From Candidatus Latescibacterota bacterium (GTDB lineage: Bacteria; Latescibacterota; UBA2968; GCA-2709665), in contig CBDCOX010000002.1 of the NCBI GenBank assembly GCA_965219995.1, positions 4,576,001 to 4,640,000 of the forward strand: DNA of 64,000 nucleotides, read 5' to 3'. Positions 32,824 through 58,721 of this stretch are shown in pieces. The notes under the pieces were generated by a model that saw nothing but the letters and a program-made list of their open reading frames with translations, ran no database searches and had not been told where the DNA came from. Numbering within the stretch: the stretch's first letter is position 1; each line of letters opens with the position of its first letter. The position numbers and the translations under genes are program-made.

Positions 32824-35214
32824 CTATTCCGCCTTTCCAATGCGATAGCCAACGCGCGGCTGGTTGAATATGAAAGTTGGGGCTCGCGCGGAGTCCCCCA
32901 GTTTGCGTCGGATGTTTTTAACGGCGGCGTGCAGCGGCCGTTTGTCGTCTGTATTCGACCTGCCCCAGACCTGTTTCAACAGATCCTCGTGCAGAACAGT
33001 CTGGCCGGCATAAACGGAGAGTTCCTGCAGTAGCCGATACTCAATTCTGGTCAGGATCAAGGACTCACCGGCCATTGTCACCCGGCGGCGGGCGTAGTCA
33101 ATCTTGAGATCCCCCATCATGAATGGTCTGGATGGAACGGCCGTCTCCGGCGGGAACCGTTTGCGAAGGATCGCCCGGATTCTGGCCACGAGTTCCGTAG
33201 GTGAAAAGGGTTTGACCACGTAATCTGACGCGCCGCTGTCGAAGGCTCGGGCAATCGCATCTTCGTGTCCGTAGGCCGATAGAAAGATGACTGGTACTTC
33301 AGCCTTTTCGACGATGTTCTGCATCAATTCTACGCCGTCGCTTCCCGGAAGCACGAGGTCCAGCAATACCAGTTCGGGACTGTGTTCTTCCACAAGTTTC
33401 AGTGCCTCGTTCGGGTTGCCGGTAACGACTGGAACGAAACCGGCGCTTACCAGGGCCTTCCGCACGCTACGCAGCGTCTGCGGGTCATCGTCCACGACGA
33501 GGATCTTCGTTCGGTTCTTGAATACCGCTCTTGTGAAGGCGATGGGGGCGGCCTTTCCGCCTCCTGTGCCATCTCCTCCATCATAGGCAACCGGGATCGT
33601 GAACTTGAACCGGGTTCCCGTACCCGGTCCGTCGCTTTCGGCCCAGATCCTGCCGCCGTGGGCTTCCACGATGCCTCTGCAAATTGAGAGGCCCCATCCG
33701 GCCCCTGTTTCGTATTCGAGACCGGCATCCCGCTCGCGGGGGAAGGACTTGCGAAACAGGTGCGGAATGTGCTCGGCGGGCACGCCACGACCGTGATCGG
33801 CTACGACAAACTCGACGTGTCCGCTCTCTTTTTCGGCAGAAACCCGAATTGGTGAATTCTCCGGCGAATTCTGTGCGGCGTTCGTGAGTAAGTTGACCAG
33901 TACCTGTACGACGCGCCCCGGGTCGGCCATAACAGGGGGGAGGCCGGGCGCTGACTCGATGTGGATGCTGTCTCTGTCCCAACCACTTGAGAAGGTGTTG
34001 CGAGCCTGCTCCAGCAACCCGGTCACCGTGGCGGAAACCGGAGTTACAATCAGGGTTCCGGTCTCGATGCGAGCCACGTCCACCAGATCGTTAATCAGTA
34101 CCCCCATATTGTCGGCCTGCTCTTCAATGATGCGCAAGAACTGGGCCACCTCGGCCGGACGAAACGGGAAGGGTTCGCTCAAGGCCGTTGCCGTCGAACC
34201 CTTGATTGCAGCCAGCGGCGCCCGCAGTTCGTGGGTTACCATTGCCAGGAACTCTGCGCGCAGCCGATCCAGTTCTTCCATATGCGTCATGTCCTGCAGA
34301 GTCACGACATAGGACGCTATGCCACCGCCAACCGACTTGATCGGGGTGGCGTTCATCAGGGCGGTCAAACCGCGGCCCTCCGGTGCCAGGATGACGACCT
34401 CCTCGGCTCGTACCGTCTCGCCTCTGCTCAGAGCTTCAACGACAGAGAGTTTTTGTAACGTGATTTCGCTCCCATCCGCCCGCCTGAGAGTCAGGATCTT
34501 CAGTGCCTTCCGCGGGGACCGCGTCTCGACGCCCAGGTATTTGACAAGTCTGCACATCTCCCGGTTGAACGAGACCAACTTTCCCGTCGTGGCGTTCCAG
34601 ACCACAACGCCCACCGGCGACGTGTCGATCAGGGCTTCGAGGTCGGCCCTGGCGCGCTGTTCCTCCTGGTGACGCCTGGCGTTCGCAATCACCAGCGCCG
34701 CCTGGGAGGCGAACATGCCCAGCGTCTCTTCGTCTTCCGGCGTGAACGCCTTGCTTCCTTCCTTCTCGGCCAGAAACAACGTCCCCACCCGCTCTCCCCC
34801 GTGGTGGATCGGCGCCACCAGAAACGTCAATTTCGGACTCACCGGCATTGGAGGACGAAATTCAGGCAGGCCCAGGCGCTCTATGTGGACGTGCAAGTCT
34901 CGTAACCGTAAAGGTTCGTCCAGGAAGGCGAAATATTCGAAGAGCGCCTCGTTCTCCGGAAGGCGCCAGATCCGCCGCGTCTGATTGGGCGTCATGCCGG
35001 AGGACATGCAGTTCTGTACCCGCCTCCCATCATCCAACAACGTCAACATACCGTACTTCGCGTCTGTCAACGATCGGGCGCCGTCCAGGACGCCCTGCAG
35101 TACCGCCTTGATGTCAAGGCTTTCGTTGATGCGCGTGAATGCGTTGCCCATGCGGCAGAGGCGCTCCTGCAAATGTCTGTTCTCTGCCTGAAGCCTCTCT
35201 GTCTTTCGCATCAT
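32824..35214 (-). CDS. Cytoplasmic hybrid GAF-PAS-histidine kinase-receiver-OmpR-type winged-helix regulator
   Basis: GAF ('FTPEDEETL..FASQAALVI'), PAS, HisKA 'HELRAPL', HATPase 'NLLTNA..DHGRG..GAGWGLSIC', REC 'VDDD..LLDLVLP..KPF' and wHTH 'LTRIEYRLL..VWG..IRRKLGD..VGYRI'. ATG at 35214 after GGAGAGG; no transmembrane helix seen. Confidence 0.88.
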   Translation of the reverse strand: MMRKTERLQAENRHLQERLCRMGNAFTRINESLDIKAVLQGVLDGARSLTDAKYGMLTLLDDGRRVQNCMSSGMTPNQTRRIWRLPENEALFEYFAFLDEPLRLRDLHVHIERLGLPEFRPPMPVSPKLTFLVAPIHHGGERVGTLFLAEKEGSKAFTPEDEETLGMFASQAALVIANARRHQEEQRARADLEALIDTSPVGVVVWNATTGKLVSFNREMCRLVKYLGVETRSPRKALKILTLRRADGSEITLQKLSVVEALSRGETVRAEEVVILAPEGRGLTALMNATPIKSVGGGIASYVVTLQDMTHMEELDRLRAEFLAMVTHELRAPLAAIKGSTATALSEPFPFRPAEVAQFLRIIEEQADNMGVLINDLVDVARIETGTLIVTPVSATVTGLLEQARNTFSSGWDRDSIHIESAPGLPPVMADPGRVVQVLVNLLTNAAQNSPENSPIRVSAEKESGHVEFVVADHGRGVPAEHIPHLFRKSFPRERDAGLEYETGAGWGLSICRGIVEAHGGRIWAESDGPGTGTRFKFTIPVAYDGGDGTGGGKAAPIAFTRAVFKNRTKILVVDDDPQTLRSVRKALVSAGFVPVVTGNPNEALKLVEEHSPELVLLDLVLPGSDGVELMQNIVEKAEVPVIFLSAYGHEDAIARAFDSGASDYVVKPFSPTELVARIRAILRKRFPPETAVPSRPFMMGDLKIDYARRRVTMAGESLILTRIEYRLLQELSVYAGQTVLHEDLLKQVWGRSNTDDKRPLHAAVKNIRRKLGDSARAPTFIFNQPRVGYRIGKAE

Positions 35215-35332
35215 CCTCTCCTGTAGCACCGACCCCTTCATCCCCGTTGACTGTGTGAACGACATCGCAGGGCCGTTACGGACGTCAACCGTTGTCGTAC
35301 AGCGGCGTCTGGGAATGACCACAAAGAGATGA

Positions 35333-35420
35333 TTTTCAGAATAAAATCATCGAATGCGAACATGAATTCAGTGTAAATTCATTATTTTTACTTATATTAG
35401 AGAGAAAATTTATTATACAT
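35333..35420 (+). promoter_or_regulatory. Phased TCA-box array (copy 0), upstream of the divergent hybrid regulator
   Basis: TCA at 35336, 35347, 35368 and 35379 (spacing 11/21/11), followed by an AT-rich promoter-like tract. Confidence 0.6.
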
Positions 35421-35527
35421 AATAATTCTTAAACATACAAGTGTCAAATGCACTTGCGCGGCGGCGACCATCGACACAGCAAGTCGGGGCGACGCCGGAC
35501 CCTCCTTCCCACTATCGACCCCGCTCT

Positions 35528-35851
35528 GCGAATTCCTGTTCCCTGTCTCACGCATCCAAATCGGTAACGTCAACCTCTCCTCTCGCGCCAGCCCTCGCGT
35601 CCCTTACGACGGTGTGAAACACGAACTGAAAGCGGCAGGTAGATCGATCCGTGTTGGCCGGTCCTGTCCCGGTTGGCTCCGGATTGGGTCGTTATCAGCG
35701 AAATATCATCGAAGACGAGGGGAAATTCATTAATAAATCATAAGTATAACTTAATATAGAAATGCTTTTTTATTATATTTATTGCTCCGATGCCGATCCT
35801 CGTGGAACAGGGTCGGCTGCCGCGACGCAGATGAAGTGTCCTGGAGGACCG
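35528..35851 (+). promoter_or_regulatory. Duplicated promoter/leader module, copy 1 (diverged)
   Basis: Homologous to 46911-47416 and 52123-52563. TCA at 35695/35706/35727/35738; TTAATA(35751)-N17-TATATT(35774). Confidence 0.75.
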
Positions 35852-35878
35852 GACGTGCCGGTGAGGAGGTAGTCTGCA

Positions 35879-38800
35879 ATGCTGTTTGGATTTCGAGCAA
35901 GGCCGGTTGTTTCGAACAACCCGACACGTAGCGAGTCGCCGCGAATCCCGCACGAGACGGCCATGGCAGCCATCGTATTCCTGGCGTCTTTTCTTGCGGC
36001 TTCCCAGGTGCGGGCGCAGTCGCAGGCCATTACGCTGTCTGAGACATCCCTGAGCGTTGACGAATCGAACAGTGCGACGTACACCGTAAAGCTGGCCACG
36101 CAGCCCACCGGTGACGTGACCGTTACCATCACCGGAACGTCGGGGACCGACCTCGATCTGGACAAGACCAGCCTGACGTTCACGACGTCGACATGGAGCA
36201 CCGTACAGACCGTGAGGGTAACCGCCGATGGGGATACTGACGCGACGGACGATTTCGTGACGCTGGCCCATACGGCGTCCGGAGCGGACTACGCTTCCGT
36301 AACGAAAGAACTGCCCGTTACGGTGGAGGACATTACCAACGTCACCCTGACGGTAACCGGGCTCGATTTGCTTTCGATGTCAGAATACACCGACGACACC
36401 AGGACCATATCGGCGCGCCTGAGCAGGTCGCTCAGCGACGACGTCACGTTGACGGTTACCGCGTCTCCAGATGATGCAACCACGACTTCCGGCGACTATA
36501 CTCTCAGCCCGGATCCGGCGGAAATCACGATTTCGGCGGGAGACTCCCTTACGAGCGATGAGGTGGTTTTCACGGCCGTCGACGACTTCAATGACCGGCA
36601 TAAGAATGTTCAATTGACGCTGACGGTGGACAACGCGCGGGTGACGGTGTCCGGCGGGACGACGAGGGATATCTTCATCCGGAGCGACGACCTCGCTTCG
36701 ATCAGTCTGGAACTGGCGCCGGATCCGATATTCGAGAACGGCAGAGCAAGCAGAGTGACGGCGACGATGGCTTATTCCGACCGGGTTAAAGAGCAGGTGA
36801 CGCTGACGATTTCGGCCGAGGCGGCCTCGTCGACCGTAGCCGGGGACTTCACGCTCACGGGAGGGCCGCTGACGTTCGCGCCCGGCGCACATACCAGTCA
36901 GGGCACGGTAATGATCGCGGCCAACGACGATGCGGACATGGATGATGAGACGGTTACGGTTACGGGCAAAGTCACCGGAGGGCGGAGCGTGATAGAGCCC
37001 GAGCCACTTACCTTGAATATTGTCGATGACGACGAAACCGGCCTCGTGACGATGTCATTGCGGCTGACGCCGGAACGGATCCGGGAGTCCGGCGGGTTCA
37101 ATGTCAGTACGGTCACCGCGGAGGTAAGCCGGCCGTTGACGCAGCCGGCGACCGTAACGGTTTCCGCGTCACCGAATCCGGAGAACGCGGAAACGACCGC
37201 CGATGACTATGCGCTAAGTACGAACCTTGAACTCCTGATTGCCGCGGGGGAAACCGAGAGTAAGGGCAGGGTGACCCTTACGGCGGTGGACAATTCACTG
37301 TACGAGGGTACGCATAAGAGTGTATTGGTTACGGGAACGGTGACAGGCAACGCGGGGGTGGCGGCTCCCCCACAACGTGAATTGACGATTTTGGAGGACG
37401 ATGTCAAGGCGACCGTGCAATTGATAGCGACGCCGCAAACAATCGATGAAGACGGAGGCGTCAGCACGATCACGGCGGTGTCGCATTTGCCGATGCCTGA
37501 AACCGTGACTTTCGACGTGAGGGTGTCTGGTTCCGCGGTAACGCTAAGCGACAATGTAACTCTCACGTTGGCCCAGGGAGAGACGAACAGTACGGGGACC
37601 GTAACGGTAACGGCGGGAGATATTTCCGGTACAAATCATACGAGTGTGTCCATCAGTCGACAGAACCTCAGTTCGTCCTCGTTTACCGTAAAGACAACTC
37701 GTATACTCGTCATCGACGACGATTATACGGGCTCTCAGTTGTGGATGAGGTTGTCGCCCGGCGACATGGTTGAGGGCCAGAACCAGGTCAGCACGGTGTC
37801 CGCGTACCTTACCCAGGCGTTGTCGGAGAACGTGACCGTAACGGTCGCTATCGACGAAGACTACACATCGGCGTTTCCCGATGAATACACGTTGAGCACA
37901 AATCGGACGTTAACGATATCGGCCGGGGATACGACAAGCACCGGAACGGTGACGCTTACGTCCGTGGACAACGATTACTATAGCGCCAGGCATGGCTACA
38001 GAGTCGGGTACACGTACGAGGTAACCGGTCCCGCTGGTTTGCAAACCAGGAAATTACAGGATAGCTGGAGTATCCGCGAGGATGAGTCTCCGACCGTAGT
38101 GACGCTGGTCTTGACCCCGGATGCAATTGACGAGAACGGCGGGGAATCTACTGTAACCGCCGAACTCAACTCCGCGGTGCGAAGTAACCTCACATTGACC
38201 GTGCTGGCGGATGGGTCCGGGGACGTCACCCAGAACGGAACGACGCTTACGATTGCCGAGGGATCAAAAACGAGCACCGGAACGGTAACCCTGACGGCCG
38301 TGGACAACGCCATGGACGCGCTGGATAAATTCGTCCGGGTCCGGGGTTCGCTGACCGTTGCCGAGGATCTGCCGTTTTCGATCGTGTTTCCCTACGGCCG
38401 GCAGTTGACGATCACGGACGATGATGAGGCAGACCTGGTCCTGTCCACCGCGTCGCTGACGGTTACGGAGGGCGCGGACCCCGGAGGGACCTACACGGTG
38501 AAGCTGGCCACCGAGCCCACCTCCGACGTGTCGGTGAGCATCGGCCTTCCGTCCGGTACGGATGTCTCGGTCAATCCATCCAGCCTGACGTTCACCCCGA
38601 CGACGTGGAACACGGAGCGGACCGTGACGGTATCCGCGGCTCACGACGACGACGCGAGCAATGACAGCGCGACGCTGACACACATGGCCACCGGCGGCGG
38701 CTACGGGTCCGTCAGCAAGGACGTCTCGGTTACGGTGAACGAGGACGACGAGCCGGCCCTCGTGTTGTCCGGGACGTCGCTGACGGTGGCGGAGGGGGCG

Positions 38801-41800
38801 GATCCAGGCGAAACCTACACGGTGAAACTCGACACGAAGCCGACCGCGAGCGTGACGGTGACGATCGGGGGTACGGCAGATACCGACCTCACGCCGGACA
38901 AGACGAGCCTGACGTTCAGCACCACCAACTGGAACGTGGAGCAGACTGTGACGGTATCCGCCGCCGAGGACGACGACGCGGTCGACGACAGCGCGACGCT
39001 GACGCACACGGCGTCCGGGGGCGACTATGGGTCGGTGAGCAAGGACCTTCCCGTGACCGTGACGGACGACGACGAGGCGGAAATCGTGCTGTCGCCCACC
39101 TCGCTGGGCGTGGTCGAAAACCAGGACGCGGCGTACGAGGTGAAGCTGGCCACGAAACCAACCGCAACGGTTACGGTGAGCATTACCGGTCACACGGGGA
39201 CGGACCTGACGCCGGACAAGACGAGCCTGACGTTCAGCACCACCAACTGGAACACGGAGCAGACCGTGACCGTGTCCGCGGGTGACGATTCCGACGCCGC
39301 AGCGGACGAAGAGACCCTGACCCACACGGCCGAGGGAGGCGATTACGGGTCCGTGAGCAAGGACCTTGCGGTCACGGTAACCGACGACGACCAGGCCGGT
39401 ATCGCGATTTCACAGCCGTCGCTGGACGTTGACGAGGGCGACATTTACGCTTATACGGTTAAACTGGCCACGCAGCCCACCGCCCCGGTGACGGTGTCCA
39501 TAGGCGGTCACTCCGATACGGACCTGATTCTGGACAGGACGAGCCTGACGTTCAGTACCACGACCTGGAACACGGAGCAGACCGTGGAGGTGACGGCGGC
39601 TCACGACGACGACGCGAGCAACGACAGCGCGACCCTGACACACACGGCGTCCGGGGGCGACTATGGGTCGGTGAGCAAGGACCTTCCCGTGACTGTGACG
39701 GACGACGACGAGGTTGATATCGTGCTGTTTCCGGAGTCGCTGGACGTGCTGGAGGACGGCAGCAGTACCTATACGGTCAGGCTGGCGACGGAGCCTACCG
39801 CCGGCGTGACGGTGACCATCGGCGGTCATACGGGCACGGACCTGACGCTGGATACGACGGAGTTGACGTTCACCCCGACCGGCTGGAACGCGGCGCAGAC
39901 GGTGAGGGTGTCCGCGGGAGACGACGACGATGGCGGCAGTGAGTCCGCGACGTTGACGCATACGGCCACGGGCGGCGACTACGCGTTTGTGACGCGTGAC
40001 CTGCCGGTTACGATTACGGATGACGACGCCGCGGGCCTGGTTTTGTCGCCGTCGTCGTTGAACGTGGAAGAGGGCACCGACGTCAGCTATACGGTCAGGC
40101 TGGCGACGGAGCCAACCGACGCAGTGACGGTGACCATCGGCGGTACCTCGGGTACGGATCTGATACTGGACAGGACGAGTCTGACGTTCAGCACGTCTGC
40201 GTGGAGCACGGAGCAGACCGTGCAGGTGACCGTGGCGGCGGACGAGGACGGGCGCAATGACCTGGCGACGCTGACGCACACGGCGTCCGGGGGCGACTAT
40301 GGCTCCGTGAGCAGGGACCTTCGCGTCCTGGTGTCGGACGGCGACGACGAGGCCCTGGTGCTCTCGCGCGGTTCGCTGACTGTTGAGGAAGGCACGATGG
40401 CTACCTATACGGTCAAGCTGGCGACCATGCCTCTCGGCAACGTCGAAGTGAACGTCGCTGTAACCGGAGAGACCGACGTCTCGGTGAACCCGACGCGTCT
40501 GACGTTCACGCCGTCCGACTGGGCCACCTGGCAGACGGTGCGGGTGTCCGCGGCGCATGATGACGACGCACTCGATGACCAGGAGACGGCAACCCACTCG
40601 GCCTCCGGCGCCGGTTACGGCTCCGTGAGCAAGGCCCTGACCGTGGTGGTGGCCGACGATGACGAACCGGACCTTGTGTTTTTGCCGACGTCGTTGACAG
40701 TCGGCGAGGGCACGGACGCCACCTATAGGGTAAATCTGGCCACGGAGCCGTCCTCGGACGTGACGGTGACCATCGGCGGTGGCCGGGAGGCTGACCTCAC
40801 ACTGGAAACGAACAGCCTCACTTTTGCCAGGTGGAACTGGTATGCCGCCCAAACCGTAAAGGTGTCCGCCGGACACGATGACGACACTGTAAACGACCGG
40901 GGAACGCTGACTCACTCCGCCGCCGGGGGTGACTACGGGTCGGTGCGCAAGCGTCTTCCCGTCGTCGTAACGGACGACGATGCCGGCGGTGGTGGAGGCG
41001 GGGGCAGAGGCGGCGCCCCCGCGGCGATCGTGATATCGCCGTCGTCACTGACGGTGGATGAGGGCGCACACGCCGCCTATTCCGTGGCGTTGGCCGCACA
41101 GCCCACGTCGGACGTGACGGTGACCATCGGCGGAGCGGGGGGCACGGACCTGTCGCTCGACAGGACGGATCTGACGTTTTCCACAACGGCCTGGAATACC
41201 CCGCAGTCGGTAAGGGTGTCTGCCGCGCACGACGACGACGCGGTGAACGACACCGTGACGCTGACGCACAACGGCTCCGGCGGGGGTTACGGTTCGGTAA
41301 GCAGGGATCTTGGCGTGACCGTCAGAGACGACGACGAGGAGATCCAACAGACGGTGGAGGTGACGGTGTATTTCGATCGGGAAACCCACACCGCCGTGGA
41401 GGGCGGCAGTCCCGCGCGCGTGACGGTGCGCGTCATGCTGAACGTGGATCCCGATCGGGTTCTGACGGTCCCGCTGGCGGTAACTTTGAACGGCGGCGCC
41501 ACCGGCGACGACTACGAGGGTGTGCCGGAGGAGGTCACCTTCGGTCGCGGCGAGATGGAGAAGGCATTCCACGTCACCGCTATCGACGACGACGTGGACG
41601 ATGACGACGAGAGCCTGACCATCGGCTTCGGCGCGTTACCCGACGGTGCGCTGGCGGGCAGACCGGTCAGCACGCTGGTGCATCTGCAGGACAACGACGA
41701 CCCCGTGACGACGGTCTCGTTCGACAGATCGACGTACGAGGCGGCGGAGGGCGGGAGTCCGGCGCGCGTGACGGTTCGGGTCATGCTGAACCGGGACCCT

Positions 41801-44509: not shown

Positions 44510-44827
44510 ATCCCTCGTGAACAGCACAGAGTGGGTTCGGCCATTCCTGAAGATCGGCCGGGCTGGCGACGGAAAGGGGGGCAGTGCGAACGTCGTTATA
44601 GGGATTTCGATCACAGGCAATTCCTAATAACCACTACGTATACTCGATTCTGGATCGCTGTTCCCCGCCGTGCAATGCAACCGTTGGGGAGGATCGGATG
44701 GACCCCGGGAAAGAGATGGTGTCTCGTTTGAATGATCGGTCCTGATCGATGGACCGTTGTCATATAAAAGAGGTCAGTTAACCCTGATTGCCATTTCGAC
44801 ATTGTCACTTTGGAAAGGAGAACCGTG

Positions 44828-46687: not shown

Positions 46688-46865
46688 CGTGATCCGGTTG
46701 CGCAGGGTATTCTCTCCTGAGAACCCGTCCGGAGACACCCGATCTGCCTTGGCCACGAGGCTCGCGGGGTCTTCGGACGGGTTCTCTCTAGCGGATTTCC
46801 TTGACATGAAGAGACTTTGACCGATTCGATCGCGGGCAGGTCAGACCATGGAAGCCGATGTCAAG

Positions 46866-46889
46866 GTGTGTCGGACATTCCTGTCTGCC
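46866..46889 (+). repeat. Degenerate GGCAGACATTCCTGTCTGCC REP-like copy
   Basis: gtcggacattcctgtctgcc. Confidence 0.6.
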
Positions 46890-46910
46890 CGTCTTAATGC
46901 CGCGTCTTTC

Positions 46911-47416
46911 GTTGATGTCCTGAACCCCGCCTGCCCCTGCGGGAACGGTGCTCGCCGAAATCCTGTTTCCCTCCTGACGCTTTTTAATTTGTAGCGTCAT
47001 TCCCTTCTCCTGCGCCGGCCTTCGCGTCCCACTTGACGGTTTGAAACAAGAAGCAGATGCGGCAGGAATATCAACCCGTGTTGGCCGGTTCTCTCCCAGG
47101 TTGGCCCCGAATGGGGTCATTTTCAGCGAAATATCATCGAACACGAGTGAAAATTCATTGATATATCATAAGTTTAGCTTAACTCAAAAACACTTTTCCA
47201 TTATATTTATAACTAAGGCAGGCGATCGCCTGGTCCACTCGCGGCATCGTCCAGCGTTTCTGCAAGTCAGGACGAAGCCGGGCTTCGCCTGCGAAATTCG
47301 GGTTGGCATTGTTCAGAGACGGTAATACACGATGGCATCTTCGGGAGCCGATCCTCCTGGATCAGGGTCGGCTGCCGCGACGCAAGTGGAGTCATTTAGA
47401 GGACCGGACGCTCCGG
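46911..47416 (+). promoter_or_regulatory. Duplicated promoter/leader module, copy 2 (longest)
   Basis: Highly similar to 52123-52563; its 3' part 47347-47416 matches 35792-35851. TCA at 47123/47134/47155/47166; TTAACT(47179)-N17-TATATT(47202). Confidence 0.85.
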
Positions 47417-47487
47417 ATACTCGCTGTCTGCCGGTCACGTCGTCTCGGAGCAACACAGTCCTGCTGCACTCTTGTCCGGGAGGATGA

Positions 47488-50400: not shown

Positions 50401-52122
50401 ACCCTCATGCACCCCTCTTACGTCACTGCGGTTGTGTTTTCGCCAGATGGAGAACGATTGGCTTCCGGGTCATGGGACCAGGTCATCAAGCTCTGGGACG
50501 TCGAGTCGATGCGCGAGGTTGGATCCTGGGAAGTGGAGGGGCAGGGGAACTCAGTTTCGTTTATTTCGTTGGATTTTTCGCCGGACGGGTCGAGGTTGGC
50601 GGCTGGTCTTCGGGACGGCACGGTCAGGCTGTGGGACGTGGCGACCCGGACGGAGGTGGCCATGATGGACGGGCACGCGGATCGCGTCAGTTCGGTGTCG
50701 TTCTCGCCCGGCGGCGCCTTGCTTGCTTCTGCCGGGGGGTGGAGTGATCGTTCGGTCCGGCTATGGGACGTGGCCACACAGACAGAGGTCGCCGTATTGA
50801 AAGGGCATACCCGTGACGTGCGATCGGTGGCGTTTTCTTTGCCCGATGGGGCTACCCTTGCATCAGCCGGGGGATGGGACGCAACCGTGCGACTGTGGGA
50901 CGTGGCGACCGGTACGGAGGTAGCGACTCTGGACGAGCACAAGGGTGCGGTTGTTTCGGTGACGTTCTCGCGAGGAGGGGGCACGCTCGCCTCGGGGTCC
51001 GCTGACGGCACGGTCTTGCTGCGGGACGTGGCCTCGGGCAACGTCGCCAGACTTTCCGGTCATACATCCATGTCCTCAATGGCGTTGTCGCCGGATGGCG
51101 CAACGCTGGCATTGGGACATAAGGACGGCGCGGTCGGGCTGTGGAACGCGGAAACGAAAACACGGATTGTTACATTGAAGGGTCATTCGCATGACGTCCT
51201 CGCCCTGTCGTTTAGCGCGGACGGGAAGACCCTGGCGTCCGCATCGGGGGACCGTACAATCAAGATATGGGACGCGAGAACAGGCGCAATGATTACCGCT
51301 CTGGAAGGCCATACAGAGGGCGTGACTTCTGCGGCGTTTTCTACGGACGGGAAGGTCCTGGCTTCCGGGACGACAAATGGAGACGTGTGGCTGTGGGACG
51401 CGGCGACGTGGAGGCGAAGCTCGCGGCTTGAAGGGCATAGGGACCGGGTCGCTTCCCTGTCGTTTTCTCCGGACGGCCAACTCCTGGCGTCCGGGTCGTG
51501 GGACCGCACCTTCAAAATATGGAACGTAAACACACGGGTACCGGTCCTGACCCGGCACGGTCACACAGGTTCAGTCCATGCGGTGACGTTCTCGCCGGAT
51601 GGAAAGACCCTGGCTTCCGGGGCGGGAGACGGAGATGGTACAGTGCGCCTTTGGGACCTGCGGACCGGAACCAATTCCGCCACCTTCAAGAACCCCTATG
51701 GCGTTTATTCGTTGGCGTTCTTTCCGGACGGCGAATTGCTCGCTTCGGGTATCTGGTTTTCCGTTACGGTGTGGAACGTGGAAACACAGGAACAGATTGG
51801 CGTACTCGAAGGGCCCAATCGCCAAATTCACTCCCTGGCGATTTCGCGCGACGGCAGCACTCTGGCCACAGGCGCATCGGATGGTACGATTCTCTTATGG
51901 GACGTAACGCAGTATCTCCCGCCCAAAAACCCCGATCCGGACTTCGACGGCGACGGGACCGTCGGTTTTTCCGACTTCGTGCAGTTTGCGGCAAAGTTCG
52001 GGCTGAGTCAGGGCGATGAGGGGTACGATGGGCGGTACGATCTGGACGGGAACGGCGCGATCGGTTTCAGCGATTTTGTGGCTTTTGCCGGCGCGTTCGG
52101 TCAGAGAGCGACCGGATCGTGA
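47488..52122 (+). CDS. Secreted M60-like metallopeptidase fused to an Ig-like domain, WD40 repeats and a dockerin-like EF-hand tail
   Basis: 'STGLYAAPGE', 'APWGEI', 'GYMHSGYPI' and 'HEVGHNHQ..WTF.GTVEVAVN'; about 13-15 'GH...V.SVAFSPDG..LASGS.D.TV.LWD' repeats; 'DFDGDGTVGFSDF...DLDGNGAIGFSDF'. Confidence 0.88.
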   Translation: MKAAIRCLIAMLMVVCVETDPALEGRIPLGSGASATEVNDDLDALLDGVAEVAMPPGGPGAMCVYGPEAFPVIVGAASSSVNGARAPVVAAGYWEGGRMVAVGSLGLLFLQSTLETAHNGRLMENALHWAAGKTRPDRPRIGVVGNRDLRLWLKQAGYDVVETALTIASLRTVDVVAMTMWDETEQEVSALLAFVRAGGGLVAQSSGWFWADRHPDLDLAGDFAGNRLLARVGIQWTGLTANPTSTLGFTVDGPPDELTHAARALDAVEANGLTQPELAQATYTLTSTLYSLPPDDTLFAPRLHVLIEPDEYRWPSAERPVEEADLLDRLAATLFVTENLRTPAESVRAHPAAADFPGSVPADAPRLSRTVTIDATKPAGHTTSPWSEPHKHRWHSTGLYAAPGELITVTVPSAVAAAGLHVRVGAHSDANWNRTEWTRMPEIGRRFPISSTTTLAANAFGGLIYVEVPVNADLGRITVMIEGAVAAPIFVLGETDPAEWRSEIRHAPAPWGEIAGRNMIVTIPASEVRDLDDPAAVAETWDRILDLNAELAAWPSPARVRPERFVIDRQTSHGYMHSGYPIVAQLDQPVNLVSVEHLRSEGQWGPFHEVGHNHQSRDWTFDGTVEVAVNLFTLYVYEYLCGIPVARSYREWADPRSQAMIANYDFDNPDFELWKREPTLALYMYVQLQQAFGWEAYRQVFATYRALSDAERPKNDDEKRDQWLVRFSRQVRRNLGPFFEAWGVPTSAAARASIGELPVWLPSEFSTLTIVSGNGQHGAPGDALARPLVVEVIDPYGKVLPGASVTFKVTAGDGKLSGRFSTEHVTSDALGRAELPFTLGPDPGPNTVVVSIGERELATFTAQGVGPMVGGLKGDYRTWHLPDGATLRLGKGAMGQGDRAVALSADGRFLAVASDIGVWLYEAATSGILALLPTERPVISVTFSIDGLLAAGMENSGIIQLWGVETGASRGTLMHPSYVTAVVFSPDGERLASGSWDQVIKLWDVESMREVGSWEVEGQGNSVSFISLDFSPDGSRLAAGLRDGTVRLWDVATRTEVAMMDGHADRVSSVSFSPGGALLASAGGWSDRSVRLWDVATQTEVAVLKGHTRDVRSVAFSLPDGATLASAGGWDATVRLWDVATGTEVATLDEHKGAVVSVTFSRGGGTLASGSADGTVLLRDVASGNVARLSGHTSMSSMALSPDGATLALGHKDGAVGLWNAETKTRIVTLKGHSHDVLALSFSADGKTLASASGDRTIKIWDARTGAMITALEGHTEGVTSAAFSTDGKVLASGTTNGDVWLWDAATWRRSSRLEGHRDRVASLSFSPDGQLLASGSWDRTFKIWNVNTRVPVLTRHGHTGSVHAVTFSPDGKTLASGAGDGDGTVRLWDLRTGTNSATFKNPYGVYSLAFFPDGELLASGIWFSVTVWNVETQEQIGVLEGPNRQIHSLAISRDGSTLATGASDGTILLWDVTQYLPPKNPDPDFDGDGTVGFSDFVQFAAKFGLSQGDEGYDGRYDLDGNGAIGFSDFVAFAGAFGQRATGS

Positions 52123-52563
52123 GTTGATGTCCTGAACCCCCCGCCCTTGCGGGAACGGCGCTCGCCGAATTCCTGTTTCCCTCCTGACGCTTCTCATCGG
52201 CAGCGTCATCCCCTCCTCTTGCGCCAGCCCTCGCGTCCCACGTGACGGTTTGAAACAAGAAGCAGATGCGGCAGGAATGTCAACCCGTGTTGGCCGGTTC
52301 TCTCCCAGATTGGCCCCGAATGGGGTCATTTTCAGCGAAATATCATCGAAGACGAGTGAAAATTCATAGATATATCATAAGTTTTGCTTAACTCAAAAAC
52401 ACTTTTCCATTATATTTATAACTAAGGCAGGCGATCGCCCGATCCACTCGCGGCATCGTCCAGCGACTCTGCAAGCCAGGGCGAAGCCGGGCTTCGCCTG
52501 AGAAATTCGGTTTGTCATTGTTCAGAGACGGTAATACACGATGGCATCTTCGGGAGTCGACCC
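52123..52563 (+). promoter_or_regulatory. Duplicated promoter/leader module, copy 3
   Basis: Begins directly after the upstream stop codon. TCA at 52332/52343/52364/52375; TTAACT(52388)-N17-TATATT(52411). Confidence 0.85.
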
Positions 52564-52611
52564 ACATAAGGCTTTCCGGCCCCGCCGGCAACAAACGAAA
52601 GGCGACAGGGA

Positions 52612-55392
52612 ATGAGAACAAGACCCGTCCGATTGCACGTACGTGTCGTTTTGGCCGCCATTGTGATCTGGCTGAACAGCCTCTATAACCCCCAAAAGAG
52701 TCTCGCCGGCCACGAGGCTACCATGACCGGGATGAGCGTGGTCTCCGAACCCGCACCGGCGCCGTTTGTGGAGCGCAACCCCGATGACCCCGACGGCGAC
52801 ATCTACCACGTAGGGCAAACCATCAGGATCTCGGCCACTTTCAGCCAGAGATTGAGGGTGAGCGGCCAGGTCACCATGGACGTCACCATCGGGGACTCTG
52901 TGAGGACCGCGACGTACCATCGCGGTTCCGGAACAAACATTCTGGTGTTCAAGTACGAGGTGATCCCGACCGACGCGGACACCGACGGGATCAGCGTGCC
53001 CGCCGCCGATTGGGGCGGCAGCGGCTCGGTCCGGACCACGCACTCCAACTTGGATGCTGAATTCACGCCCCTGGGGCTCGGCACTCAGTCGGATCACAAG
53101 GTGGACGGGAGTCTGGGGCCCTGGGTCACAGGTGTGGTAATAGCCTCCACGCCTGCCTCCGGCAGCACCTACCGGTACGGGGAGAACGTCTGGGTCGACG
53201 TGAAGTTCAGCGGTCCGGTCCGGGTCGAGAGCGACAATCGACCATACCTTGCTTACAACTACCAGGATGCGGACGGGGAAACGAGGCAGAAGAGAGCCGG
53301 GTACAAAAGTGGAAGCGGAACCAATACGCTGCGATTGTCATTTCCGGTGGAATCCAACTTCAAAGACGACGACGGGCCCAGCATCCTGTCCGCCTACGTT
53401 GATGCCGCGGGCTCATCGGAACGCAGGGTCTGGGCACTGGACCACGACGTGAGGGCGCCCTGGCGAATGAAAGGGATCGAAGCGGGGACCGACCACAAGA
53501 TGAACGGGGAGCCGTACGTAAAGAGCGTTGCCATCACCTCCACTCCGGAACAGGGGAAGACCTATCGGCGCGCCGAGGTCATCCGGATCACGGCCACCTT
53601 CGACCAGAAGGTCACGGTGGAGGGGACCCTGAATAAAGGCTTGAGGTTCACCTATGGAGACAATGAGTACACCAACCGGCGCGCCGGATACGCCTCGGGC
53701 TCCGGCACCCGGGCCCTGGTCTTCGAATACACTGTCAGGAGGCAGGACAAAGACCCTGACGGTCTGAGCATCCTCCACAGCAACAACAACGGCTGGGGCG
53801 GCGGTGGGAAGATCTGGTCGGCCCTCGCAACGGGACAGGCCTCGGGCACGCAGGTGCAGGCCGACCGCAGCCACGGCGAGACAGTAGACGCGACAAACCA
53901 CAAGGTGAACGGGGAACTGGACCCCATACGCCCCGCCATCTCGTCGATCGAGATCGTAACCGATCCCGACACCCTCGGCACGTACACCGCCGGCGAGTGG
54001 ATCGGCGTCAGGGCGACCTTCCACAAGAACGTGGTCGTCACCGGCACGCCGCAGCTCGAGCTGAGCATGGGGGCAGAGACGAAGAACGCCCTGTTCGGGC
54101 AGGGCTCGTTCGAGGGGAGTGTCCGCCCCGGGAACAGGAACCCGGGCCCGAATGTGTTCTTCGGCTACCGGGTACAGGAGGGTGATATCGATACGTCCGG
54201 CATCGCCATCGGAAAGAACAAGCTCAGCCTCAACGGCGGCGCCATCAACAACGCGGCCGATTCCAGCAATACCGCGGACCTTGACCACGATGCCCTGGCC
54301 GCCGATGCCGGCCAGAAGGTTGATGCGGTCGCCCCGGCCGTCTCGTCCATCGCCATCAGTTCGGATGCGGGGGAGGATGCCTACTACGCCGTCGGCGACA
54401 GCATCGAGGTGACGGTGACCTTCACGGAGGAGATCACGGTCACCGGGGCGCCTCGATTGGGGCTGGCCGTCGGCAGCAACGCCAGGTCGGCCGTCTACCG
54501 CGCCGCCGAAGGCCCGGCGTCGGTTCTCACCTACGTCGTGCAGGAGGGGGACAGCGACGGGAACGGAATCTCCATCGAGGCGGACACGCTCAGCCTCAAC
54601 GGCGGCGCCATCGGGGACCTGATCGGCAACGCGGCCAGCCTGGACCACGACGCAGTAGCCGCCGACGCGGACCACAAGGTCGACGGGGTGTACCCGACCC
54701 TGACGGACGCAGTCAGCTTCACCCAGGGCACGTATATCAATCTGAACTTCAGTGAGAGAATCACCGTTCCGTCGATTCTGCGCACGATCAGCAGCTTCGT
54801 GAATGTCGAGCTCGACCGGTTCTACATCGCCGTCCTCTCGGTCAAGATGGGGGACGAACTCGTGAAGCCACGTTCCGCTACCCTCACGGGCTCCCGACTG
54901 CGTCTGAACCTCGCGGCGCCGCTGATCGCGGGCCAGCGGACGTGGGTATCCTACGACAACATCTTTGCCCGCGATGCGGCGGGGCTCTTCATCGACCGGG
55001 CCGGCAACCCCCTGGCCAACTTCAGCAACACCTGGGTAATAAATCAGTCGGATGTTGCAGACGGGGAATCGGACGTGGGAGAATTGGAGTTGAGCCTGAC
55101 CGAGCTCACGGTCACCGAAGGGGAATCCGCATCCTACACGGTGGCCCTGGAATCCCGGCCTTCCGCAGACGTGACCGTTGCGACGTCGAGCTCGTCCACG
55201 AAGCTTTCGGTCAGCCCGGCAAGCCTCACCTTCACCGCGCAAAATTGGGACACGGCGCAGACGGTGACGCTTACCGCCGGCCACGATGACGACGAGCTCA
55301 ACTACTGGGTGAGCGTGACCAGCACGGGCAGCGGAGGAGGCTACGAAGGCTCGGAGAAGTGGGTGCTTGTGGTCATCGAGGACGACGACTGA
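52612..55392 (+). CDS. Secreted repeat-rich surface protein (five Ig-like repeats, a SwmB-like domain and one Calx-beta-like unit)
   Basis: N-terminal signal-like stretch; repeats 'Y..G..I...ATF...V.V.G...GSGT..L.F.Y....D.D.DG...HKVDG'; the last domain is the same unit as in the giant adhesin. Confidence 0.75.
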   Translation: MRTRPVRLHVRVVLAAIVIWLNSLYNPQKSLAGHEATMTGMSVVSEPAPAPFVERNPDDPDGDIYHVGQTIRISATFSQRLRVSGQVTMDVTIGDSVRTATYHRGSGTNILVFKYEVIPTDADTDGISVPAADWGGSGSVRTTHSNLDAEFTPLGLGTQSDHKVDGSLGPWVTGVVIASTPASGSTYRYGENVWVDVKFSGPVRVESDNRPYLAYNYQDADGETRQKRAGYKSGSGTNTLRLSFPVESNFKDDDGPSILSAYVDAAGSSERRVWALDHDVRAPWRMKGIEAGTDHKMNGEPYVKSVAITSTPEQGKTYRRAEVIRITATFDQKVTVEGTLNKGLRFTYGDNEYTNRRAGYASGSGTRALVFEYTVRRQDKDPDGLSILHSNNNGWGGGGKIWSALATGQASGTQVQADRSHGETVDATNHKVNGELDPIRPAISSIEIVTDPDTLGTYTAGEWIGVRATFHKNVVVTGTPQLELSMGAETKNALFGQGSFEGSVRPGNRNPGPNVFFGYRVQEGDIDTSGIAIGKNKLSLNGGAINNAADSSNTADLDHDALAADAGQKVDAVAPAVSSIAISSDAGEDAYYAVGDSIEVTVTFTEEITVTGAPRLGLAVGSNARSAVYRAAEGPASVLTYVVQEGDSDGNGISIEADTLSLNGGAIGDLIGNAASLDHDAVAADADHKVDGVYPTLTDAVSFTQGTYINLNFSERITVPSILRTISSFVNVELDRFYIAVLSVKMGDELVKPRSATLTGSRLRLNLAAPLIAGQRTWVSYDNIFARDAAGLFIDRAGNPLANFSNTWVINQSDVADGESDVGELELSLTELTVTEGESASYTVALESRPSADVTVATSSSSTKLSVSPASLTFTAQNWDTAQTVTLTAGHDDDELNYWVSVTSTGSGGGYEGSEKWVLVVIEDDD

Positions 55393-55459
55393 GAGGATTG
55401 TTCAGAAGCAGTGTACACAGACGTATCACCTGAGCGACTCGATGGATTGAGGCTGTAAG

Positions 55460-56707
55460 ATGAAACGACTGTCTTGTGTTCTTGCCGTGATGTTTTCCCT
55501 TTTCCCGCGAGCCGCCGCCGGCGCGCAGCCGCCGCTGGATACGTGGGAACTGGTGGAAAACAGTCTGACGTTCAACATCGGGGCGATCATCGTCCAGGGT
55601 GAAGGGGAGGATCCCGTTCCCTCGTCACCCTACGTCACCCTGGAGCTGTATCGGGGCAACGCCTACAGGTTGTCCATCGGCGCCCGCGCGGCGGTCGGGT
55701 ACGCGTTTCCGCGTTTCCTGCCGGAACCGCCGGGGCACGCGGCGCCTTCCACACGGGCTACGGGTGGGCATGGATATTATACGGTGCATTCCGATACGCT
55801 GCGTTTCACTACCCATTTCGTGAGTCTGATTGCTGACGGCGTGGACCTGGGAGACGTCGTAAGGCAGTCCGACGATGCGAGGATTCAGAGAGAGTACACG
55901 CTGGCGCTTTCCCTGGTAAATGCGGCCTTCCTGGAACTCTTCAACGACCTGTACGCGTACCGGTCCGGCGACAGGCTGGTCTTCGTGCTGCCCGGCGACA
56001 GCGACTTCGCCGTCGCGGCGGAAGGTTCCGGGGACCGGATCGTGTGGGCGCTTCGGCGGGTGGGAGGTCCCCCGTCCACGTCGCGTACGGCGGTAAGGGC
56101 CACGGTGATCGGGGGTGCGGCGGAAGCGCTGACGCTGGAGTTCGCGCGTTCGATTTCGGGGCGTGCCGTGTACTATGCCTGGCGCACGACCACCGACCGT
56201 GACGGCAGGGCGGACCTCGATATCGTCACGCTGGACCGGGTGGGCGTCACCGGCTACTACAGCGCCCGCGCCCGCAACGGGGAGGGCGAGGTCGTGGGGC
56301 GGTGGAACAGCATTCCCCTGAATGAAAACCGTCGCCAGGTCCTGGAATTGACGCTGCGCGGCAGCGCGCGGGTGGTGTCGAGTCTCGCGATACACGCGGC
56401 AAAGACGGCCGTGCTTCCGGTAGAGCAGGCTGTCGCGGGGCTGGCCCCCAACTTTCCCAACCCATTCAACAGCAGCACGCTGATCGCGTACCGGCTTGCC
56501 GCCCCGGGCGTGGTTCGGCTGGAGATCTTCAATTCGCTGGGGCAGCGCGTGCGGACGCTGGTGGACGACACCCGGGCTGCCGGGCGCTACGTTGTGCAGT
56601 GGAATGCCCGTGATGGACGGGGCGAAGAGGTGGCCGCCGGCGTCTATGTGATGCGCCTGTTGCATCCCGGCGGCGTGGACGCCCGGCGCATGCTGTATCT
56701 GAAATAG
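55460..56707 (+). CDS. Secreted protein with a C-terminal FlgD-Ig/'T9SS-like' domain
   Basis: Signal peptide; 'NFPNPFNSST...FNSLGQRVRTLV...WNARD'; C-terminal ~200 aa paralogous to the 44828 protein. Confidence 0.8.
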   Translation: MKRLSCVLAVMFSLFPRAAAGAQPPLDTWELVENSLTFNIGAIIVQGEGEDPVPSSPYVTLELYRGNAYRLSIGARAAVGYAFPRFLPEPPGHAAPSTRATGGHGYYTVHSDTLRFTTHFVSLIADGVDLGDVVRQSDDARIQREYTLALSLVNAAFLELFNDLYAYRSGDRLVFVLPGDSDFAVAAEGSGDRIVWALRRVGGPPSTSRTAVRATVIGGAAEALTLEFARSISGRAVYYAWRTTTDRDGRADLDIVTLDRVGVTGYYSARARNGEGEVVGRWNSIPLNENRRQVLELTLRGSARVVSSLAIHAAKTAVLPVEQAVAGLAPNFPNPFNSSTLIAYRLAAPGVVRLEIFNSLGQRVRTLVDDTRAAGRYVVQWNARDGRGEEVAAGVYVMRLLHPGGVDARRMLYLK

Positions 56708-56783
56708 CGTGCCTGAACTACATAACTTTGCACACGGAATACGCGCGGTTGCATCACCTGACCCCTACAAGGAGGCATTCTAA

Positions 56784-57542
56784 ATGAAACTTGCATTGTC
56801 ATTGGTTATCGCCTGGTTCATCGGTTCGGCATTCCCGGTTGCGGCGGAACAGGCGCCGTTCGAGGGCCAGGTCGTGAATCCGAAGTCGCTTCCGGTCCAT
56901 GGGGCCCGGATCGAGCTCTACCGGCTCGACGATCCCACTGCGAGGGTAACGACACTGACCGACGAAAGCGGCGCCTTCTCGCTGCCCTTGAGAGACATCG
57001 CACCGCCGCGGGAGAACGAACTCATGCAGAATCATCCCAATCCGTTCAATCCCTCTACGCTCATTCCCTTCGAAATCTCGGAGGGGGGCCACGTTCGTCT
57101 GGACGTCTTCAACATTCTCGGGCAGCGCGTGGTCACCCTGATCGACGAGGAGCGTCCCGCCGGATTTCACAGGGTGCAGTGGGACGGCGCCGATGCCGTC
57201 GGTCGGGGCGTGGCGGCGGGCGTATACATCTACCGGCTCAGCACCGGCAACTGGCACGATGCGCGGAAACTGATGCTGCTCGACGGCGCGTCGCGACGTC
57301 CTGGCGGCGGGGCGGAGCGTCTCCCGCAAGAAGCAGGGGGGAATACGTACGGCGTGAAGATTTCCGGCGAGGAGATTCTGCCGGAGAGCTTTACCTGGCG
57401 TCCGGGATCGGGGCCCCTGTTTGCGGAAGTGAAGAGCCTTGAAGACGTCCTTCCGCCCGAGATCAAGAACGCCGATACCGCGACCAATCCCTTCTCGGGA
57501 ACCAGCCTCGCCTCCATCATCCAGGTCGTTTCCGGGCGTTGA
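56784..57542 (+). CDS. Secreted protein with an internal FlgD-Ig/PNPFN domain, possibly truncated
   Basis: RBS AAGGAGG; signal peptide; 'GQV..P.HGARI...TLTDESGAFSL' followed by 'QNHPNPFNPST...WDGAD'. Confidence 0.7.
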   Translation: MKLALSLVIAWFIGSAFPVAAEQAPFEGQVVNPKSLPVHGARIELYRLDDPTARVTTLTDESGAFSLPLRDIAPPRENELMQNHPNPFNPSTLIPFEISEGGHVRLDVFNILGQRVVTLIDEERPAGFHRVQWDGADAVGRGVAAGVYIYRLSTGNWHDARKLMLLDGASRRPGGGAERLPQEAGGNTYGVKISGEEILPESFTWRPGSGPLFAEVKSLEDVLPPEIKNADTATNPFSGTSLASIIQVVSGR

Positions 57543-57589
57543 TATGTGCTGAATCGGCCATCAAGCAGGCCCGAACCCGGGTCTTAAGC

Positions 57590-57710
57590 ACGGCGCCGCA
57601 CCCACCTCCACAACCACCTTCTCCACCGTTGCCGTAGACCCCTGCCCCCACGGTGACCTGGACTGCGCCGATGAACGATGCCGGACCGGCCGTCACCGGC
57701 TTCCGATCTC
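57590..57710 (+). pseudogene. Remnants of a Pro-rich linker and an FN3 domain start
   Basis: Translates as TAPHPPPQPPSPPLP* and VTWTAPMNDAGPAVTGFR, an FN3-like N-terminus, without an intact gene. Confidence 0.5.
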
Positions 57711-57821
57711 CCTCAATGATCATCTGTCAGCACTCCGTTGCGTTCCGGTCAGGGACCGACGCAACCTTCTTGCGCAGGTCTGCAGAACGATCTCGCCGAG
57801 AATTCTTATCGTCTGACCATA

Positions 57822-57907
57822 AAATCACGATAAAGTCACTATAACGTGGTGCTGAAGTCACTAAAAAGACATATTAATATTGTATATTGTCATGATAATG
57901 ATACAAT
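57822..57907 (+). promoter_or_regulatory. 11-bp-phased direct repeats plus a sigma70-like promoter
   Basis: AAATCAC 57822, AAGTCAC 57833, AAGTCAC 57855, AAGACAT 57866; TTGTAT(57880)-N16-TACAAT(57902). Confidence 0.5.
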
Positions 57908-57925
57908 AAATGCGGCTCATGGTAA

Positions 57926-58084
57926 ATGCGATTCAACCAGAAACTCGGGCTGAGGTCGGCGGACGCGGACTTCGACCCGCGTATGGACCTGGACAGCGAC
58001 GGCGCCATCGGGTTTTCGGACTTCCTCATGTTCTGGTTCTGGTTGCCGATTCTCTTTCTCACGAATCTGCATTGTTATCAATGA
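57926..58084 (+). pseudogene. Orphan half of a dockerin-like/EF-hand tail (52-aa ORF)
   Basis: Translates MRFNQKLGLRSADADFDPRMDLDSDGAIGFSDFLMF..., which matches the second half of the tail of the 47488 protein. Confidence 0.6.
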
Positions 58085-58100: not shown

Positions 58101-58721
58101 ATGACTCGCAGCATCAAATCGTTCGGCCGCCTGCCTGGTGTTGCAGGCCTGGTTTTCCTGGCGATGTTCATTACTACCTCGTCGCTTCCGACTCAGTCCA
58201 GCCGCTTTTCGCTCTCTCTGGATCTGGATGAAGCCGCTGGCGACCAGGCCGTCTCCTCGCTCGATGTGCTGCCAGATCAGCCAGTCTCCATACAGATCTT
58301 CGGCAGGGAGATCAAGGGCGCCACCGGCATGTCCGCGCGCTTGCGTTTCGATGCCGCCCAGGTCGCATACGTGGGATTCGACCCGGGCGACGCACTGCCG
58401 AATGCGTACGTCGTCGAGCAGCGGGATACCACGTCCATCGCCATCGACGTTTCTTCCCTGAGCGGATCGGTAACGGAGAACGCAGGCCTTGTAGGCACCG
58501 TGCGTCTTCGCACCACCGCGGCCTTCTCGGACACGGAGGTCTGGCTGGTGCAGGCTGAGCTTAGGCGGGACGGCCGTTCCGAAGCGGGATCCGGGGCGGT
58601 GTGGGTTCTTCTGGATGCGCCTTCTCCTCCGTCACCGGACTTCAATGGAAGCGGTGTCGTAGATTTCGCCGATGGACGAGGACGGCAAGCCACCCGTAAG
58701 TGGGTACGAGGTGGGGCATAA
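58101..58721 (+). pseudogene. Secreted cohesin-like protein truncated inside its dockerin-like motif (5' half of a broken gene)
   Basis: Signal-like N-terminus, a cohesin-like beta domain ('SARLRFDAAQVAYVGF...LVGTVRL') and 'PSPDFNGSGVVDFAD', after which the frame loses similarity. Confidence 0.6.

Follow-up and report, generated by a model that had tools for sequence, protein, structure and literature searches.

The 64,000-nucleotide stretch of Candidatus Latescibacterota bacterium DNA analyzed here (the window; GenBank assembly GCA_965219995.1, contig CBDCOX010000002.1, positions 4,576,001 to 4,640,000) harbors four arrays of TCA boxes with the same 11/21/11-bp spacing, located beside a gene for a single-chain kinase-transcription factor and upstream of genes for large secreted proteins. 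The box-array feature is real and non-random. The reading we favor, tentatively and at slightly under even probability, is that the arrays are part of a reused activator-dependent promoter module, whose operator serves the adjacent single-chain regulator or that regulator together with a paralogue. That some OmpR/PhoB-type protein binds the boxes is judged fairly probable. An earlier note on this DNA had proposed that the adjacent regulator binds the boxes, regulates its own gene through the nearest array and co-activates the downstream genes. A local regulon is plausible and partly supported. In kind, the locus is a combination of an OmpR/PhoB operator, a hybrid two-component regulator and promoter reuse, all of which are known, and it does not represent a new category.

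The pattern TCA-N8-TCA-N18-TCA-N8-TCA has exactly four matches in the window when both strands are searched, at 35336, 35695, 47123 and 52332 (copies 0 to 3), all on the plus strand. These are the arrays that the earlier note had reported, and the pattern occurred in 0/100 dinucleotide-preserving shuffles. When each of the 64 trinucleotides was placed in the 11/21/11 frame, matches in the window were obtained for TCA and its complement TGA only. The four-TCA array has no match in 1,438,004 bases from 80 fetched loci that are unrelated or distantly related, and no additional copies of the boxes, or of the larger cassette described below, were found in the remainder of the window or in those 80 loci. 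The TCA cores are invariant (16/16 across the four arrays), and alignment of the arrays reveals half-sites that are alike beyond TCA, with a consensus of approximately WWTCAK. The half-sites in the window include AATATCAT, AAATTCAT and TAAATCAT, which have a TCAT core in common. The boxes repeat directly every ~11 bp and are arranged in pairs, at 11/21/11 in all four arrays, as in operators of the PHO-box and tor-box type. The starts of the pairs are 32 bp apart, or roughly three helical turns, which would place both dimers on one face of the helix. The window has a G+C content of 61% and contains nine islands with at most 34% G+C per 50 bp. Five of the nine belong to this locus, comprising the four arrays and the island of a variant array (57798-57936). 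On the minus strand, a partial AAAATCATCGA at ~63840 was attributed to chance and not counted as a box copy.

Arrays 1 to 3 are each followed by a promoter-like site on the same strand. In copy 1 the boxes (35695-35740) precede TTAATA-N17-TATATT at 35751-35779, and TTAACT-N17-TATATT is present at 47179-47207 in copy 2 and at 52388-52416 in copy 3. The -35 element starts 13 bp after the last TCA in all three copies. The earlier description of a weak -35 at this distance, followed by N17-TATATT, is confirmed at the level of consensus matches of the E. coli type, which may not be the consensus of the host. The geometry of the boxes fits an OmpR/PhoB-type activator that would contact RNA polymerase just upstream of the -35 element.

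The regulator gene adjoins the arrays and is divergently transcribed (32824-35211, minus strand). It encodes a protein of 795 amino acids with the Pfam domain order GAF-PAS-HisKA-HATPase_c-REC-Trans_reg_C. This order, in which a kinase (HK), a receiver (REC) and a winged-helix domain (wHTH) follow the sensors, was given correctly in the earlier note, as were the divergent orientation and adjacency. The open frame reaches GTG 35322 (832 amino acids), which is not the start; because close homologues all start 37 codons downstream, and because the 795-residue form from ATG 35211 is 100% identical to the database protein P0122, the start was assigned to ATG 35211. With this start, the intergenic region is 667 bp, not 556 bp. 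Matches to PF00072 (4.8e-27) and PF00486 (9e-15) identify an OmpR/PhoB receiver with winged-helix output, and matches to PF00512 and PF02518 identify a histidine kinase of the HisKA class. The kinase motifs are HELRAPL at 327 (H327), NLLTNA at 440, DHGRGV at 472 and GWGLS at 505. An alignment of 34 homologues shows no variation in the H-box, the N/G boxes, the acidic pocket D574-D576, D618 or K667. The recognition helix, RPLHAAVKNIRRKL, is at residue 758. No transmembrane segment is predicted (the maximal 19-residue Kyte-Doolittle mean is 1.29), and the regulator is predicted to be soluble.

The REC-wHTH portion aligns over its full length to MtrA, BaeR, KdpE, PrrA and RpaA (E 1e-37 to 1e-29). 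MtrA, BaeR and KdpE are the best solved relatives (E 1e-37 to 1e-31), and the DNA-binding domain, taken by itself, is closest to VicR/WalR and RstA. No NCBIfam equivalog matched the regulator at cut-off. The best 120 clusters at 90% identity contain proteins 55-98% identical to the regulator with the same domains, and the nearest named relative among them is a Gemmatimonadota protein with 61% identity. Of the 150 best-ranking representatives of 50%-identity clusters, at least 74 align near full length (query position 35 or lower to 790 or higher). Pfam scans revealed no transcription-factor gene other than that of the regulator within ~15 kb of the array; the next, encoding a GntR protein, is ~20 kb away.

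Copies 1 to 3 are paralogous copies of a single non-coding cassette of ~260-450 bp, as judged by alignment. The order within the cassette is a GC-rich block termed D5 (~166-200 bp), the box array, the -35 and -10 elements, and a leader. Copy 1 comprises D5 at 35523-35688, the boxes and promoter given above, and a leader with a hairpin at 35792-35861. Copy 2 spans 46911-47416 (D5 46950-47115, boxes 47123-47168, then the promoter, a palindrome and the leader), and copy 3 spans 52123-52563 (D5 52159-52324, boxes 52332-52377, then the promoter); both are on the plus strand. Copies 2 and 3 align over 444 bp (46911-47354 vs 52123-52563) with 92% identity, and copy 1 (35523-35782) is 77-78% identical to them over 261 bp. 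The leader of copy 1 is 83% identical over 70 bp to 47347-47416 of copy 2, including the hairpin (arms GCCGATCC...GGGTCGGC; 9-bp stem GCCGATCCT...AGGGTCGGC). The leader of cassette 2 contains ~120 extra bases that are common to cassette 3. The D5 blocks are 66-72% identical between copy 1 and copies 2/3 and contain a TTGGC-containing direct repeat ~21 bp apart (GTGTTGGCCGG ... GGTTGGCYCCG). No conserved open reading frame (ORF) was found in D5, whose frames are interrupted by stop codons in at least some copies, and folding of both strands gave an unfavorable covariation term, with 2 and 5 compensatory pairs among 58. Rfam returned nothing at gathering score, and no tRNA genes were found. A 14-bp palindrome, CAGGCGATCGCCTG, lies at 47219-47232 in copy 2 and, as CGGGCGATCGCCTG, at 52428-52441 in copy 3, without a counterpart in copy 1. 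In the putative transcripts of both cassettes it occupies ~+5 to +18, and it may serve as a repressor site of its own.

The genes behind the three cassettes are unrelated to one another, and the alignments identify the cassettes as a case of promoter reuse. Promoter reuse separate from genes is documented in prokaryotes (PMC3575422). The cassettes resemble these mobile promoters in that highly similar promoter regions precede non-homologous genes in one genome (PMC3575422), but differ from them in that the reused segment contains a phased operator-like array and in that a diverged extra copy adjoins a candidate regulator.

That extra copy is copy 0, whose four TCA boxes at 11/21/11 (35336-35381, plus strand) lie 125-170 bp upstream of the regulator ATG, on the strand opposite to the regulator. 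Copy 0 was not detected by BLAST at E<=0.01 as a homologue of the cassette. In ungapped comparison with copies 1-3, with boxes that were defined after the data had been viewed, 20/24 WWTCAK positions match, compared with 12-13/25 positions between the boxes and 12-13/36 in the 36-bp upstream flank. The segment ATCATCGAA..CGA around box 2 is invariant in the alignment. The spacing is thus retained where the surroundings have diverged, as the earlier note had stated, and the contrast between boxes and spacers is the pattern expected of a constrained operator. Given the homology of copies 1-3, copy 0 is the sole array that adds independent support. Two promoter-like sites, again matches to an E. 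coli-type consensus, follow copy 0: TTTACT-N18-TATTAT (9/12; 35387-35416, plus strand) and TTGACA-N17-TATTAT (11/12; 35447-35419, minus strand), which is directed toward the regulator and is the best promoter match in the whole intergenic region. The two sites overlap, with their -10 elements face to face, and the boxes are at ~+31 to +76 of the putative transcript of the regulator.

Distant homologues of the regulator provide a second line of evidence. The homologue loci were obtained from a genome scan with at least 599 candidate stretches, and all figures for these loci refer to the matches listed. Full-length homologues with 45-54% identity are present in eight loci (L001-L007 and L010) from Acidimicrobiia, Dehalococcoidia, Caldilineaceae and Proteobacteria. 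The neighborhood scan covered 29 of the 67 ORFs of seven loci; L003 was too short to judge. L001 contains a divergent PD40+SLH protein, a second PD40+SLH protein and a 1918-residue subtilase-cadherin-fn3-SLH protein. L002 contains cadherin-like/He_PIG/fn3 and PKD proteins of 1120 residues each and an RCC1-repeat protein, and in L006 two tandem paralogous regulators flank a Calx-beta protein, beside a Calx-beta giant with 12 repeats. L005 has genes for HlyD and an outer-membrane efflux protein (OEP) directly upstream, and no comparable surface-protein neighbors were found among the ORFs scanned in L004, L007 and L010. Giant surface proteins are therefore encoded within 7 kb in three of the seven homologue loci (L001, L002 and L006). 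In 43 control loci taken from the same genome scan (E<=1e-12), 0/81 ORFs of at least 600 residues encode such domains, with one DUF11 protein found. The difference (3/7 vs 0/43 loci; Fisher's exact ~0.002, computed by hand) comes from a small sample, and the control loci belong to taxa different from those of the family loci.

L001 also contains three boxes of the form TGTG[AT]GTA at 9864, 9875 and 9897 (0/11/33; ending at 9905). They have no further copy within 22 kb, being confined to the AT-rich island that separates the regulator homologue from the divergent PD40+SLH gene. L001 and L003 show phased repeats of their own, and such short repeats also arise by chance in GC-rich loci. Taken together, the neighborhoods suggest that the family may generally be connected with adjacent surface-protein genes by phased repeats that vary in sequence along with the recognition helix. 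A broader proposal, which we consider unlikely, is that the GAF-PAS-HK-REC-wHTH family is a cross-phylum local master switch of giant surface, adhesin and eukaryote-like repeat-protein arrays, acting through lineage-specific 11-bp-phased operators (WWTCAK here, TGTG[AT]GTA in L001) that in this window would have spread on a reused cassette, with a feedback switch between the face-to-face promoters at the regulator. Two side observations concern these loci. The L006 (Acidimicrobiia) regulators at 5344-7770 and 9851-12340 have an upstream leader common to both. The L010 (Caldilineaceae) sequence at 9917-12400 stops after the receiver domain and lacks the wHTH, which is either a natural truncation or a frameshift.

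Under the favored reading, the AT-rich element would be an activator-dependent promoter, in which two tandem pairs of half-sites lie upstream of a weak -35 and TATATT. The GAF/PAS domains would sense a cytoplasmic signal, H327 would autophosphorylate and the phosphate would move within the dimer to D618. The REC domains would then dimerize, allowing the wHTH domains to bind the box pairs head to tail and RNA polymerase to be recruited to the three cassette promoters. A Calx-beta protein, an M60-WD40 protease and a unit encoding cargo of the type IX secretion system (T9SS) would be switched on together. Binding at copy 0 would favor the opposing promoter and result in negative feedback on the regulator.

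Several points weigh against this reading. The homology of copies 1-3 (77-92%) reaches D5 and the leader, which are unrelated to the boxes, and as judged by alignment descent alone explains the identical spacing of these copies. Because they are homologous over 261-444 bp, their spacing was inherited and did not arise independently, and the four sites amount to roughly two independent pieces of evidence (the cassette family and copy 0) instead of the four that had been counted. The contrast between boxes and spacers in copy 0 depends on post hoc definition of the boxes. The promoter calls are matches to an E. coli-type consensus in an organism whose promoters are uncharacterized. The copy 0 boxes are downstream of the strongest regulator-directed promoter, a location at odds with activation of the regulator. 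Any autoregulation would therefore be negative more probably than positive, with regulator binding at copy 0 acting by roadblock or promoter competition; the simple positive loop that the wording of the earlier note might imply is weakened by the position of the boxes relative to this 11/12 promoter. The linkage comparison has the small sample and the taxonomically distinct controls noted above. No four-TCA array was found upstream of the eight distant homologues among the matches listed, a result that is weakly informative because the recognition helices of these homologues (xxVRTFVKxLRRKL and similar) differ from that of the regulator. The boxes also coincide with phased A-tracts, which makes curved or UP-like DNA a live alternative, and relatives of the regulator have identical or nearly identical recognition helices. 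The last two points lead to the principal rival explanations.

The strongest rival, though rather unlikely, is that a promoter-plus-leader segment of ~260-450 bp was copied or gene-converted before unrelated genes without any dedicated box-binding factor. The TCA phasing would then be a by-product of phased A-tracts in curved, UP-element-like or nucleoid-protein-bound DNA that boosts a sigma-70-type promoter. The homology across D5, boxes, promoter and leader, with 92% identity over 444 bp between copies 2 and 3 in front of unrelated genes, is what such copying would leave behind, and reuse of promoters apart from their genes is known in prokaryotes (PMC3575422). Boxes 2-4 each follow AAAT or AAA, and five of the nine AT-rich islands of the window are at this locus. 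However, copy 0 shares the module and not the flanks, and it keeps all four TCA cores, including the G:C pair, while the sequence between its boxes has drifted. Curvature does not require an invariant C, and a regulator of the right DNA-binding class directly adjoins the array.

A second rival, which appears improbable, retains the operator logic and assigns it to another OmpR/PhoB-type binder, either the paralogue P0023 or a response regulator of the classical type with its gene elsewhere; the adjacency of the regulator would then be incidental or reflect partial cross-talk only. P0023 is 60% identical to the regulator, has the identical recognition helix and is probably encoded in the same genome. 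In P0001 and P0015 the recognition helix is one conservative change from that of the regulator. Because P0023 has the same helix, another family member could be the binder, and the boxes cannot be assigned uniquely to the adjacent protein as the earlier note had done. The half-site also resembles the PhoB and TorR cores (PMC4415409, PMC9239176), and the variant AARTCAC array described below hints at more than one specificity. These points are countered by the divergent arrangement, by the separate box copy in the regulator's own upstream region and by the family-level linkage to surface proteins in other phyla. It is very improbable that the repeat is primarily something other than a promoter, such as a recombination or mobile-element end, an invertible segment or a structured RNA gene: the intergenic repetition, the conserved leader hairpin and a long hairpin at 46704-46801 are compatible with such an element, but no noteworthy or convincing flanking inverted repeats were found, no Rfam family matched at gathering score, D5 lacks a conserved ORF or covariation, Pfam scans of the submitted ORFs revealed no recombinase or transposase domain, and all copies point toward downstream secreted-protein genes.

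The operator and regulator of the favored reading can be compared with characterized systems. OmpR/PhoB proteins bind 11-nt direct repeat units head to tail, and the E. coli PHO core is CTGTCAT (PMC4415409). M. tuberculosis PhoP recognizes 7-bp repeats with a 4-bp spacer (PMC4832192). The locus resembles PhoB/OmpR-type systems (PhoP, WalR, KdpE) in its REC and winged-helix output and, as far as the consensus matches go, in a candidate operator abutting a putative poor -35, and it resembles the PHO box in its 11-bp-period direct repeats and in a T-C-A-T core similar to CTGTCAT (PMC4415409). Unlike PHO operators, the box pairs in the window are offset by 21 instead of 22 bp, and the proximal box lies wholly upstream of the putative -35 element, which it does not replace. 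Unlike PhoB, the regulator carries its receiver and DNA-binding domains in one chain with a kinase of its own and GAF/PAS sensors. TorR binds tor boxes (CTGTTCATAT), with four per promoter; the arrays are similar in having four direct-repeat boxes with a TTCAT-containing core before a target promoter (PMC9239176). TorR, which controls a respiratory operon, is a response regulator distinct from its membrane kinase TorS, whereas here the components form one soluble chain and the targets are secreted proteins. Like the regulator gene, torR is divergently transcribed, and its negative autoregulation through the distal boxes resembles the feedback proposed for copy 0.

The combination of kinase, receiver and DNA-binding domain in one polypeptide is found in the hybrid two-component systems (HTCS) of Bacteroides, which control adjacent loci for extracytoplasmic functions (PMC11253607). 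These are transmembrane proteins with periplasmic sensors and an AraC/XylS-type DNA-binding domain (PMC11253607). In contrast, the regulator has GAF-PAS sensors without a predicted transmembrane segment, and its DNA-binding domain is an OmpR/PhoB wHTH (Trans_reg_C) with no match to HTH_18. Among openly available papers, the transmembrane AraC-type HTCS of Bacteroides were the only characterized single-chain kinase-transcription factors found (PMC11253607, in its available part), and an OmpR-type single-chain form is not mentioned in the accessible portion of the review PMC12471899.

If the link between regulator and boxes is true, the locus would supply both a sensor and an operator through which very large surface and secreted proteins of a little-studied lineage are expressed together, namely Calx-beta adhesin-like proteins, an M60-WD40 protease and T9SS cargo. 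It would also give a first function to a widespread single-chain kinase-transcription factor architecture. A whole regulatory module that can be copied before unrelated genes would be a means to build a local regulon. If the cassettes were instead reused without a dedicated binder, the locus would be a case of ordinary promoter reuse. The most interesting leads are the regulator family, widespread but uncharacterized, and the linkage of its members to giant surface proteins across phyla.

The genes downstream of the arrays are all on the plus strand. As the earlier note had proposed, they form a secreted-protein array: all seven downstream products have hydrophobic signal-like N-termini, and three of the seven are T9SS cargo as defined by a C-terminal type A sorting domain. 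Cassette 1 precedes a Calx-beta repeat giant of 2876 residues identified with Pfam (35879-44509; signal-like N-terminus, C-terminus ...HVYW). The next gene, at 44810-46687 with a likely start at ATG 44828, encodes a secreted protein with a T9SS type A sorting domain (TIGR04183; 35.7 bits, cut-off 23), and the gap between the two genes (44509-44810) contains no boxes. Directly 3' of the stop of the second gene is a long imperfect hairpin (46704-46801, plus strand; 36-nt arms, 75% complementary). It is possible that this hairpin marks the end of unit 1, and its position after the second gene is consistent with separate transcription units. An Rfam match to mir-616 at 46704-46801 was rejected as an artefact that reflects the hairpin shape alone. 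Cassette 2 precedes the gene for a 1544-residue protein with a peptidase M60 domain, a WD40 propeller and two dockerin-like C-terminal repeats (47488-52122). Unit 3, behind cassette 3, begins with a gene for a 926-residue protein for which no family was found (52612-55392), followed by two genes for secreted proteins with T9SS sorting domains (55460-56707 and 56784-57542). Both are above the TIGR04183 cut-off, with the match in 56784-57542 being internal. TIGR04183 was not found in the remaining four of the seven downstream products.

The variant array (57822-57872, plus strand) consists of AAATCAC at 57822, AAGTCAC at 57833 and AAGTCAC at 57855 (0/11/33), followed by a degenerate AAGACAT at 57866. 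The earlier note had described a complete variant array at this position; three AARTCAC boxes at 0/11/33 are present as described, but the fourth reads AAGACAT. The array sits in an AT-rich island upstream of 58101-58721 and a leucine-rich-repeat (LRR) gene at 58672-60501, and no plus-strand promoter at the array passed the consensus scan. The cohesin named in the earlier note is not supported, with no cohesin match for 58101-58721 in Pfam or NCBIfam. The product of 58101-58721 is a signal-peptide protein with a dockerin-like end, and that of 58672-60501 contains fn3 and LRR domains without a signal peptide of its own. The two ORFs overlap by 50 nt in different frames; a frameshift, or an error in the assembly, may have split what is a single gene. 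A dockerin-like coding remnant (...DLDSDGAIGFSDF...) is present at 57985-58024, downstream of the variant array and outside any long ORF. It is 80% identical over 40 nt to the C-terminal repeats of the M60-WD40 gene at 51939-51978.

Elsewhere in the window, a cluster at 16575-24461 encodes a URO-D-like methyltransferase, a B12-binding protein, a RACo-type activase, an MTHFR-like protein and a homocysteine S-methyltransferase. It looks like a corrinoid-dependent methyl-transfer system unrelated to the box arrays. A gene for a GntR/FCD regulator lies near this cluster, at 15009-15980.

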